The position numbers and the translations under genes were made by a program. DNA of 64,000 nt from Podarcis vaucheri. Lineage: Eukaryota. The notes beneath the pieces were generated by a model. It was given only the letters and a program-made list of their open reading frames with translations, had not been told where the DNA came from and searched no databases. Of the stretch, positions 4,852 through 10,197 are shown piece by piece; position 1 is the stretch's first letter, and each line of letters starts with the position of its first letter. The stretch lies in the NCBI GenBank assembly GCA_965113315.1, contig OZ220371.1; one strand, 5' to 3'.

Positions 4852-7800
4852 TACAACAGTTTGTTCCCTTCGGTTTTTATATAATATTAGTAAGAACACA
4901 TCAACAATAGGTCATTGCCTCACAGTGATCTCTCAGTTGTTTATTCTATGAGTGAATATGAGGAGTCACACATGATAATGAAATTTGTGCATTTACAAAA
5001 GGTTTGTACCAAACGTGAGAGAGACCAATAACTGATACGATAAAGGGATATTTCTCTGACTATTCATCTCACTAGTAACAATAAAATAGATAGCTGTATT
5101 GTAAGTGACAGCCTCAATTGATACACAACTCTGATGGCTAGCTGTAGGGTATAGTGATTTATGTTGCTGACAATTACTTAGGCAAAACACTCACACAAAT
5201 CAAGAAATGCTGAGAGAAATTGGTAAGTATTAATAATATGCTTCATAATGTGCTAAATAGAGCTTGTGGTGCCAATCAATGGAATGTCATCAAGTAACGA
5301 AGCAAATAGAGGGGAAGAAAGAGGAAAGCAAAGAGCTGTAATTTGTTGCTAAGCAACACTTGGCCAATTTTTCTCTTGTTTCTTGTGGATTATCTAGAAC
5401 CAATTAAGGAGACCACCAGCTCAGGGCTGGCCCTGCCATTAGGCAAACTGAGAGAGGGTTGCCGCAGACAGCTGATATGGGGTATCGTGAAAGGGTAGCA
5501 AATGATTAGTTATGCAATTATTTTTATTGTTGCTGTTTTTTTGTTTCTTTTACTGCTAGGAGAGGCAGAATTGTTTTGGGGGTTATTATTATATTTTTGC
5601 TTCAAATTCCAAAATAACTTAACCAGCCTTGGGTGTTATGTACCTTGACCTGGAAGCAGGAACACCATGCTGTTCCGCCCCAGGTAGCAAAAAAATGTCT
5701 TGGCAAGGCCCTGCCTGAGGCTCTGGTTGTCACAGTTTCACTGGGAAAACCATGATTTTCAAAGCCCTGCTACAGGGAAAACTCAACACTTGATCAGTCC
5801 CAGTTTTAAAGCAGCAGCACAGCATGTGCCTAGGCTGGCAGAAGTTGAAGGCTCAAGATATACTTTGCTTAGAAAAGTCACATATAAAACCTCTACAATC
5901 TTCATATATAGAAACTACGGTAATCCTTGTGATGGTTGTCTGGTTCTTTTGTGAGGAAAATGTCATTTCTCTCCATCCAGAACATGCTGCTTTCAATCTA
6001 GATTGATTCTAGATTGTGCTATCCACATGGGTGCATGCTAAGAGTTTACTTCTAAACCACTGGTTCATGCCCAGGTGAGGGAGCAAACCTTTAAATAAAA
6101 ATACAACTAAGAGAAAATCAAAGCAAAGTACCCAGCAGAGACCCGGCTTATTTAGAAAATCTATTGCACAACAGAACAGTCTTGCTAACCAGTTGTTAGG
6201 TGAACCACTGCCCTCTCAAAAAAATGATTAATGGGAACCGTAGCTTGTTAAGGATGCTAGGAATTGTATCTCAGTGAGGGAGTAAACCAGTTTGGTGGGA
6301 AAATGTATGGGGTGTGCGCCATTTAAGTGCATAGGACATGCTTTCAGTTAGGTTCTCAGTGTTGGTTCTTCACATGCCATTGCAGTTTGGTGTGGCCAAC
6401 CAACAGAGCAAAACAGAGACATGGGGTCCCTGCATTCTCTAGGGGGCTCCACTGAGTTTGATTAGACAAACAGTGTCTCCACCTGAGAGATGAAAAGTCA
6501 TCAGGGCATGTGGTGGCAGCAAGATTTTAAACCAGAAGTATTTTTTAACCATTGTGTCCACTTTTTTCCATTTAGTAAATAAAACTATGGACTGTTTAAC
6601 ACCTTGAAAACAAGCTGCATTTGCAGAGTCATTGAAGAGAATGACCCCAAAAGATGGGATGGTTCATCCGGGCTTTAACAATCAGCATTGTTTTAGGCTT
6701 TTATTGTCTGAGATGGTAATAAAAATGAAACAATCAGCGCTCTATTTACACCCAGGAGATTATTCTTCTTGCTCCATGACCTGAGGTGCCATGGAGAAGG
6801 ACCTTCTTCTGCTGAGTCCTATAATGCTGATATTAAAAGTTTAATGAAACAGAGCATTGGAACACAAAGTGCAGTGCTTAGACTGCTCCTCTTGTGTTTT
6901 TATGTCCTTTGCATTAGTGTGAACCAGTATTTCTCCATAAATACATAGAAATAATAGTTGTAGTTGCTGAAAGGTTTTATAGCACAACATCAGCTAGTCC
7001 ACAAGAGGCAATGCAAAGCTAAAAAGCGAACATGTAAATAATACCTAACAGAGTCATGTGGGATCAAAGAAAGTAGGAAGAAAGTGTTTGCTATGGATCA
7101 GCCATGTGTTCTCTAGGTAACATTTTTGGTTCAAATGCAGCAATTTCAAGAAGGGAAGTCAGAAAGTCTTGTAAAATCCTAAATTCAACTTTTTGTGAAT
7201 GTTTGTTCACAGTCATTTCCTTCCTTTTGCTTGAGTGACCACTTAAAAACCTCTGTCCCATTCTTTCTTAAGTGATTCTAGCCAATTAAGGATCACATGC
7301 TGGATGTAATGATGGTACGGAAACTCTGGAGTCAATCAGATTTGACACTTTCCTGAGCATCACTAAGGGTGAATGGCTAATTTGGACTCAGGTGGTCTTT
7401 ATAGGAAAGATGACTAAATAGCAGGGGGGAGGGGGGATGCACCTTGGGATCAGACTACATGCTACCTTACACAGAAGTCAGTTTCTCTCTCCCCCCCCTC
7501 CCGTTCTGTGGCAGGTCAGGGAGGAAGGCAGCAGTCACCCATCAAACCATTTCACAAGCCACTTCTAAAGATAGTTTAAAATGAATAGCACACATTTAAA
7601 TTAGAAGTGTGCTACAATAATAAGCAGCAATGTGGGCAAAATATGTCAAATGTTTTTCCAGGTAGATGATCATCATCAAACAAACTTCACTATCAAGGGC
7701 AAATTAGATTATGTAGGGTAAGTAGAGTAAGGAATGTTAACTGAAATTTCAGTTTTTCTGATGTCTTTGATGAAGTTGCAAGCTTCACAAATGCATGCCT

Positions 7801-8140
7801 TTCAGTTTCATGTCTGCTTAGACAACAGTTCTCTTTGGTTACCTGGAGCTGAACTTCTTGATCTTTCCTAAGCATCATTGCCACCCTTATTGATGTCATG
7901 CACATATTATACAGATGCCATATACGTGTGGCATTAATCAGGATGACGCTGAAGAAAACATGGAAGTATTTGGGGATATAAAGAGGAAACGTCTTACAGG
8001 GATTTGTTTGAATAGCTTCAGTTTCTTGGCAAAATTGCTGATCAGTCTCAGCCAATGCCTTCTCACCTGCCCTTACATTCTGAATTTGGTTGATCTGGTA
8101 TATCTGGCTTGCTGTTCATCTGATTTTGTAATGTTAATAA

Positions 8141-8545
<405 letters not shown>

Positions 8546-8618
8546 TAGTTTTGAACCACAAACCTAACTGAAATGATGTAGGAGCCCGAGAGTGCCAAGT
8601 ATAACAGAACAGAACAGT

Positions 8619-8800
8619 AGTAGATAGGTAGCCGTGTTGGTCTGCCATAGTCAAAATAAAAAAAATCCTTCCAGTAGCACCTTAAAGACCAACTAAGTTA
8701 GTTCTTGGTATGAGCTTTCGTGTGCATGCACACTTCTTCAGATACCATAGTTCTTGGTATGAGCTTTCATGTGCATGCACACTTCTTCAGATACACTCTT
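8619..8800 (-). mobile_element. Penelope-like element terminal-repeat fragment
   Basis: 14-bp TSD CAGAACAGAACAGT (8605-8618, 8801-8814); GGTAGCCGTGTTGGTCTG...AGCACCTTAAAGACCAAC motif; contains hammerhead cores. Confidence 0.82.
8706..8794 (-). ncRNA. Tandem pair of minimal type I hammerhead ribozyme motifs (8706-8747, 8757-8794)
   Basis: Minus strand GUAU-CUGAAGA-A-GUGUGCAUGCACAY-GAAA-GCUC-AUAC, twice with a 49-bp period. Confidence 0.8.
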
Positions 8801-10197
8801 CAGAACAGAACAGTTTTGTAAGTTCTGGCCTTGGGTGCTTAAGGAGAAAAGGTGACTGCTGTAATATGGTAAGTAGCAGACTGAACTGCCTTCTGGATCT
8901 AAAACATTGCTTATGCGTCTTTTTTCTTTCTTCCTGGAAAAATAAATAAATCAATGGGTGCATCTCTACAAGTCATTTCAAAAGGACTCCTGCAGAGGAA
9001 AATATTATGTTAGAACCGGTCCTTTGAGAGTAATAGACGACTTTCACTTAAAAGTAATGGTTTTCACAGTATGAATTTCCCTAGGGAAACTGGGTCAGTT
9101 GTCATGTAGGCTCCCGGTGCATATCATCCGCCGATCTATACCAAGATGGAAAATATTACTAGCTGGAACCTTATTGAATTTTATTTGTAGTTATCCCTGT
9201 GGAAAGCTGTGACAGTGTTTTCTTAAATGAAGAAAGTTCACTGCAACTCCCTCGCTCTAAGAGCATTTTTAATGGCAGAAAAATGTTATTAAACGATGCC
9301 TGGGGGCGGGTCTGAGGGGGAACCTAGGCAAAAGGGGGGGAGTGTGCAATATTCTGCTGTTAAAGTTTCTCATTCCCCTTTCCTGCTGTGTTGCAGTTAG
9401 AGGTGTCAGGTCGGGACACTTGCAAAGTCAGATACCCCTGTTCAATGTTTGTAGGCAGTATCAAGGTGAAAAGCCTTGCCCAGCTCAAGTGGACCTCTTA
9501 CTGCAGTTCTCCTTGTGTAGGTACCTTTCACAGGTTATGACTTATCCATCCAACCATTCCCTCGCCTGTTGCCCCAAGCCACCCACTGCACTTGCACCTC
9601 TAGAACATGGCACTAGACTGGGGGTAGAGACCATGTTTATACCTATTATGTGCTTTACACAGGAAAAGACCAAGTTGTGCCTTGTGAGGAAGGCAGGCAT
9701 TGTTTGCCAAGGAATGGCAGTGTCACATATAGAGCCAGTTTGGATATGTATTTTCATCTTGCTATCCTGTGGCTTAAGATTAAGAATCTGCATTTCAATT
9801 TACCTGGGGATTGCAGATTTATTCATCTTAGGGTTTAATACTACTAGTGTTTTATTAGTATTAGGGTTTTAGGGGAAAGCTAACTAGCCTGGTGTACCAG
9901 GGAAGGCTGGAAGCATTGGGGGCTGAAGAGGATGTGTGGATCTGATGATCATTCCTGACTTGCTGAAGCTAAGGTCCATTCAGTTCAGATTCTGAAAAGA
10001 TTACTCATGTATAAAAGCATTTCTGATTTCCTTCAAGTAGCAGCCCCCTCTGTTTGTCCTGATCCCTTGTGTAAGGTGCTGGGTAAGGCGCTGTCCCTGA
10101 AAGGCAGCGTTGTCCTCCATTATGCATACATAGAAGTACTCTCTACTTGAGCATGAGAAGTGAGACCAGGGAGGCGGGGAATAATGATGGCTGATTA

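Follow-up and report, generated by a model that had tools for sequence, protein, structure and literature searches.

The 182-bp insert at 8619..8800 of a 64,000-nucleotide stretch of Podarcis vaucheri DNA (hereafter, the window) is best explained, with a probability that we put at about 0.8, as a young and short end of a Penelope-like element that lies antisense in an intron of GRIA2, and whose hammerhead motif was likely doubled by template switching at the 5′ junction. The resulting pair of hammerheads is predicted to fold into an inactive rod.

The insert is located approximately 100 bp inside the intron that follows the exon at 8277-8516. The best PDB matches of this exon are glutamate receptor 2 (E 6.6e-50, 77/79 residues identical). 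The exon encodes GluA2, and the insert is therefore antisense within the intron. A repeat finder detected a perfect 14-nt direct repeat on its flanks, so that the TSD-flanked insertion next to a GRIA2 exon proposed in a preliminary description of this DNA is borne out. Coordinates are given in Table 1. We found no sign of a host function for GRIA2, and no report of an antisense-hammerhead insert in a GRIA2 intron was found among publications judged on their titles and the start of their abstracts.

Table 1. Features of the doubled-hammerhead insert and its surroundings (window coordinates).
Feature	Position	Strand	Remarks
GRIA2 coding exon (GluA2 amino-terminal domain)	8277..8516	+	AG/GT boundaries; PDB matches; host context, outside the insert
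TSD, left copy (14 bp)	8605..8618	.	100% match to right copy; last bases also equal the element tail (tail seen in L010/L011)
pLTR end of Neptune-type Penelope-like element, helix I to tail	8619..8745	-	127/127 nt identical to L010, L011 and L013
Hammerhead unit B (downstream in RNA)	8708..8745	-	Intact minimal type I motif, C17 at 8712
2-nt filler TG	8746..8747	-	Lengthens helix I to 6 bp; non-native relative to the upstream sequence of L058; likely fold-back addition
Duplicated unit A (upstream in RNA)	8748..8797	-	Minimal motif 8757-8794, C17 at 8761; first 3 bases are native upstream sequence
Third partial echo of the core	8792..8804	.	At the 5′ junction, 4-nt overlap with the TSD; TRF row 8779-8804, period 13
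TSD, right copy (14 bp)	8801..8814	.	Same direct-repeat family, 100%

Several features of the host locus are worth recording. In the GluA2 exon (8279-8515, + strand), two residues are unlike those of the solved-structure sequences (Y to F and D to T). To the sense strand, the insert adds two weak acceptor-like CAG sites (8739-8741 and 8788-8790) behind a short pyrimidine run, and a donor-like GTAAGT site is found at 8818-8823 (+), just beyond the TSD. Use of these sites could conceivably create a cryptic exon of 76 nt or one of 27 nt (in frame). The two palindromes of the insert can also form a 13-bp hairpin on the GRIA2 pre-mRNA strand (8720-8782; -35.2 kcal/mol over 8690-8800), about 200 nt from the donor site of the exon.

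The element belongs to a large family. A DNA search of the same genome yielded 67 matches from the 40 candidates scored out of 1,254, and the top matches were 89-100% identical. When two further copies were compared with 8619-8745 without gaps, scores of 95 and 103 were obtained. The exact 34-nt hammerhead core was found in 7,972 copies in the genome, while the reversed control was found in none; therefore, the motif represents an element and not a chance resemblance. Judged by its sequence, the insert is a young copy of a very abundant Penelope-like family.

The Penelope origin that had been suggested for the insert finds support in parent copies, where its sequence is continuous with an ORF encoding RT and, at the C-terminal end, a GIY-YIG domain. 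At locus L223, a 599-aa ORF contains RVT_1 (E 1.3e-11) and GIY-YIG (E 3.1e-5); a hammerhead core lies around 180 nt downstream of the stop codon, and an inverted core lies upstream. A C-x4-C-x2-C linker separates RT and EN in 5/5 ORFs examined. As the Neptune clade is recognized by a CX2-5CxxC linker that connects RT to EN (PMC8557442), the element can be regarded as Neptune-type, an assignment made by linker motif rather than by tree. Unlike the Neptune elements described in PMC8557442, the copy at 8619..8800 carries no ORF. Hallmarks of EN+ Penelope-like elements are also present: the 14-bp TSD, the tail, 5′ truncation and, in related copies, junction echoes. Five long-ORF loci were fetched among the 150 matches listed; all were 5′-truncated, and no full-length pLTR-ORF-pLTR copy was found among the five. 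No full ORF was detected between the two same-strand cores of L110 (2.8 kb apart) or inside the inverted pair of L108, and L031 and L033 lacked a Penelope-like ORF of at least 100 aa.

Two further observations on the family deserve mention. In around 1,600 copies genome-wide, the C at the cleavage position is replaced by U (CUU triplet); these copies make up a subfamily variant (examples are L162-L191). Locus L058 shows a TATA-like box about 30 nt upstream of the core and an Inr-like TCAGT just 5′ of helix I, at the point where short copies begin; the latter sequence also reads as a splice acceptor.

The two minus-strand hammerhead motifs with a 49-bp period reported in the preliminary description were recovered by TRF (8699-8794, period 49, 2.0 copies, 97% matches, score 185), by the repeat finder (two 47-nt copies, 8699-8745 and 8748-8794, 98% alike, with one substitution) and by reading of the minus strand. 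Each copy contains, in this order, GUAU, CUGAAGA, an extra A, a 14-nt palindromic helix II, GAAA, GCU, C17 and AUAC. The anatomy is that of a minimal type I hammerhead, as had been claimed: both units have CUGANGA and GAAA boxes, an extra nucleotide before the palindromic helix II, an NUH triplet, a palindromic AGCU at 15.2-16.2 and a short helix I. Folding also reproduced the 6-bp helix I described for the 8706-8747 copy. The scissile bonds are predicted to lie after 8761 and 8712, 49 nt apart.

The units are not identical. They differ in their first 2 nt, and the outer core has a helix I of only 4 bp. In unit A, C11.1 is changed to U at 8769, and the G10.1-C11.1 pair, which is kept in unit B, is replaced by a G10.1-U wobble. 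Scanning with the Rfam hammerhead covariance models, a check that the preliminary description had put forward, gave no match at E<=10 in 7500-10000 or in 8600-8830; such models are uninformative for minimal motifs, and the scan indicates that neither region harbors a canonical type I hammerhead with a closed helix III. The + strand at 8601-8830 has neither a CUGANGA nor a GAAA box; therefore, the sense pre-mRNA is unable to form a hammerhead, in agreement with the earlier statement that it would not be cut.

The folding of the dimer is less favorable to cleavage. The strand order permits a double hammerhead, in which the two AGCU palindromes would make a 4-bp helix III, the inner helix I would be a 6-bp hairpin with a 7-nt loop, and the outer one would have 4 bp. 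However, helix II together with its loop is a perfect 14-nt palindrome, and two copies can pair as a 14-bp duplex; because of this palindrome, the copies are predicted to pair into an inactive rod. The rod, with paired helices II and no helix III, is the minimum-energy fold (-35.3 kcal/mol, z -4.3), and ViennaRNA gave it a probability of 0.975-0.978 in 4/4 sequence contexts. The double-hammerhead fold lies 20.7-22.2 kcal/mol above the ensemble, the inner core alone lies 16.3-17.8 above, and a gap of 6.9 kcal/mol to the double hammerhead remains even if the rod is forbidden. These folds include neither Mg2+, tertiary core contacts nor protein, and are uncalibrated by a known active dimer. When 18 tandem pairs were folded, the probability of the rod was at least 0.95 in 17/18 and 0.76 in the remaining pair. 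In prefix folds, local formation of the first helix II persists up to a transcript length of about 70 nt; since it forms before its partner exists, a kinetic window for cleavage during transcription is possible. Altogether, the antisense RNA is predicted to be mostly rod-paired, with at most rare cleavage of the upstream site by the downstream core. The proposal that the dimer cleaves twice and frees a 49-nt monomer is thus not upheld by the models: the rod dominates, the double hammerhead is predicted to be thermodynamically inaccessible, and the outer core combines its short helix I with the G-U pair at 10.1-11.1.

A genome-wide count of dimers, suggested in the preliminary description, revealed that close tandems are rare. 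A strict junction pattern produced 11 matches and a looser one produced 27 matches at 24 loci; as the patterns were exact, these tandem counts are lower bounds. Two near-complete units were found at 11 of the 24 loci, one complete unit plus a fragment at 8, and none at 5. The periods of the 11 two-unit loci range from 41 to 89 nt, with 9/11 at 41-49 nt, and their junctions are mostly different. The junction of the 8619..8800 insert is 1 of the 27 matches and is single-copy; hence, spread of the 49-nt unit as a family of its own was not found.

Other tandem arrangements were also observed. Loci L036 and L037 (G000:C26:10137105 and 11185231) are 1 Mb apart and have different flanks, and they share the same dimer junction and first-unit start, which hints at repeated copying of a tandem template. 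L150-L152 (G000:C27:27967806-27967929) is an array of four hammerhead units at 47 bp, and L094 (G000:C1:5631958-5632401) an array of five at ~101-104 bp. These arrays are retrozyme-like, belong to the same family and are also predicted to form rods.

The doubling is located at the 5′ junction of the copy. The 5′ ends of other copies were classified by motif. The sample was drawn from the 7,972 core hits and comprised the first 85, which lie within the initial 6.2 Mb of contig C1; head-to-head pairs were counted twice. Native upstream pLTR continued for at least 40 nt in 36/85 hits, and native sequence was lost within 0-3 nt of helix I in 35/85. An echo just upstream of helix I was inverted in 25/85 hits and direct in 6/85. 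Genome-wide, an exact pattern detected 4,282 copies with 12 native upstream bases, and a non-native base was found directly before helix I in 2,519 copies, compared with 126 at a control position inside the core; since these patterns differ in length or position, the counts do not provide exact ratios. The TG filler start is common to 828 genomic copies. TG is the reverse complement of the bases that follow the 3′ strand of helix I, and this is what fold-back of a cDNA end would be expected to produce.

The possibility that copies start at the cleavage site was rejected. The 1,678 copies without C17 are mostly C17U (95 T among the first 100 listed), and the 10 nt upstream are preserved in 27 of the 30 fetched; therefore, their starts are not at the cleavage site. 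On sequence grounds, copies begin just 5′ of an intact hammerhead, and not at the cut site, a pattern that fits the use of uncleaved RNA as template. In the anole, the uncleaved RNA of a Penelope-like element has been described as the template; reverse transcription begins at an internal point, the tail, and the cleavage site showed no RNA ends (PMC11167929).

A tentative explanation is that the family RNA may begin near the promoter start of the pLTR, 0-3 nt before helix I; a TATA/Inr layout has been described for rotifer pLTRs (PMC3846280). No G excess was found in favor of a transcription start as the source of the 5′ ends, and 329 RNA reads of run X23 pass that point into the upstream pLTR. 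A cap-derived G before the native start was discarded, with G in 101 copies versus A/T in 400 (13 T among the first 100 listed); in many of 20 G-start loci fetched, the G comes from an inverted echo. The idea of a 5′ exon spliced on at the TTTCAG that precedes helix I was also dropped, as no upstream sequence is common to the short copies. The literature on Penelope-like elements describes partial tandems, inverted ends, self-priming palindromes and TATA/Inr motifs in the pLTR (PMC8557442, PMC3846280), and nothing on Penelope junctions was found among the publications listed for template jumping or snapback.

With these observations in hand, the following history is likely for the insert. The endonuclease of the element nicked the target, as shown by the 14-bp TSD. 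Reverse transcription likely proceeded from the tail over ~127 nt and reached the 5′ strand of helix I; the template RNA would probably end at this point, near the promoter start of the pLTR. Through fold-back, the cDNA end likely gained 2 nt; it then likely re-primed 47 nt back, copying the hammerhead again. One more short echo was likely added before joining to the target via a 4-nt microhomology. Template switching could be attributed either to the RT of the element or to a host end-joining polymerase, and one CpG change in the upstream copy likely came afterwards. We infer this order of copying events from a single sequence.

Formation of the pair admits other explanations. Tandem duplications of ~49-bp size are common in vertebrate DNA, and a single-hammerhead insert might have been duplicated later by replication slippage or unequal repair; the 4-5-unit arrays found elsewhere do suggest some later expansion. 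This explanation seems, however, very unlikely: the match between the units extends over no more than 47 nt, the 2-nt filler that links them is the usual 5′-junction signature of the family, the duplication stops exactly at the 5′-end hot spot, and a third echo is found at the same junction. Even less credit can be given to an assembly error, which we consider extremely improbable. Four of the 24 listed runs were compared with 8525-9000, and the inner duplication junction was spanned by no listed contig piece, so that the doubling is unconfirmed in reads. However, the units differ by one substitution and the 2-nt filler, ten other loci contain two-unit tandems with junctions of their own, and a contig from run X1 matches 8772-9000 without difference, which makes the outer junction real in X1 (a run that may be the source of the assembly itself). 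In a comparison meant to detect an empty site, flank depth was nil on both flanks in X6, from another organism, and on the left flank in X1; these records are filtered, and hence provide no evidence of absence. Template switching at the 5′ junction thus remains the preferred origin of the doubling.

A different question is whether the pair works. One could imagine that the antisense RNA folds co-transcriptionally, or with the help of the element protein, and cuts at 8761 and 8712 to free a circularisable 49-nt unit, in other words a newborn retrozyme. We regard this as unlikely, even if all the pairs can be built and the catalytic boxes are intact in both units. Precedents point in both directions. 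Canonical hammerhead dimers of the axolotl cleave much better than monomers (PMC7229834), and one of nine Xenopus dimers was very active, while the other eight gave no product (bioRxiv 10.64898/2026.07.22.740005). In Schistosoma, the monomer of a minimal hammerhead was inactive, and the dimer or trimer weak (PMC4209133). Minimal dimers are therefore of low activity or inactive in these published accounts. The G10.1-C11.1 pair, absent from the outer core, is highly conserved in minimal hammerheads (PMC4209133), a viroid hammerhead is moderately slowed by an additional A at position 10 (PMC1636495), and the anole Penelope-like ribozyme requires the protein of its element (PMC11167929). Besides the predicted dominance of the rod and the 4-bp helix I of the outer core, the first cut would leave the upstream piece attached through no more than two 4-bp helices. 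Existence of the four-unit (47-bp) and five-unit (~102-bp) arrays and of a junction shared by the two C26 loci is in favor of a working pair; the single occurrence of the present junction among the 27 matches, indicating that it has not spread, is against it.

RNA data from a related organism (organism F) do not lend support to activity either, but the test is weak. Runs X21 and X23 contained 611 and 1,151 reads on the repeat, with both orientations about equal, and the X23 reads that enter the native upstream pLTR belong to this set. No reads were found on the unique flanks, and hence no sign of antisense transcription at this locus, in the 6% and 12% of the runs that were read (the tissue is unstated, and the insert may be absent from that organism). 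RNA starts or ends did not pile up at any position, in libraries unsuited to a 49-nt RNA. A bolder speculation, which we consider quite unlikely, is that 5′-junction scars of an active Penelope family seed retrozymes: the 49-nt tandem, chaperoned by the element protein, would free a circularisable RNA from GRIA2-antisense transcripts, and the four- and five-unit arrays and the loci with a shared junction would be later stages.

Several known systems come close to the insert. Both units have the layout of the turtle motif in the supplement of PMC4209133, and share with turtle-type minimal hammerheads the CUGAAGA box plus one extra A, a 4-bp helix I, the palindromic 15.2-16.2 and the absence of helix III. 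The location in the pLTR, the thousands of dispersed truncated copies and a proposed action as dimers with low in vitro activity are also traits of the minimal hammerheads described there. In contrast, the units of the present insert are 49 nt apart instead of ~3 kb, one of them has a G10.1-U11.1 pair, and helix II plus loop is a perfect 14-nt palindrome, which the turtle loop is not; the latter difference favors the inactive inter-copy rod.

Another lizard element, PAc (Poseidon) of Anolis carolinensis (Frangieh et al. 2024, PMC11167929), is likewise a Penelope-like element with a hammerhead in its pLTR, and the internal start at the tail, the uncleaved template and the lack of RNA ends at the cleavage site reported for PAc are features in common. 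PAc belongs, however, to another clade, and its hammerhead has been assayed (with assistance of protein), whereas cleavage is predicted from sequence in our case. Non-LTR retrozymes (PMC7229834; bioRxiv 10.64898/2026.07.22.740005) resemble the insert in having tandem units derived from pLTRs of Penelope-like elements, each with a type I hammerhead. With two consecutive hammerhead units in tandem, one of which has a change in helix II, the insert would fit the operational dimer definition of the preprint. It differs from retrozymes in the size of its unit (49 nt, compared with 51-972 bp in the reported families and 170-400 nt in classical ones), in harboring minimal rather than canonical hammerheads, in its single-copy junction, and in showing no sign of expression, circles or spread. 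Most likely, the insert is an ordinary insertion scar of a young and very abundant Neptune-type family, predicted to misfold.

An ordinary scar may still be informative. The family offers thousands of natural junctions in which copies start just 5′ of an intact hammerhead, in agreement with in vitro work in which uncleaved RNA served as template. Its monomer, dimer, four-unit and five-unit loci make up a ready series for asking if palindromy of helix II keeps dimers from cleaving. Should the dimer cleave, retrozymes could arise straight from Penelope insertion scars, and the 49-nt tandem would be one of the smallest retrozyme units.

Perfect tandem repeats are also found elsewhere in the window, at 45968-46059 (39 bp x 2.4) and 35606-35647 (16 bp x 2.6), and are probably recent duplications.
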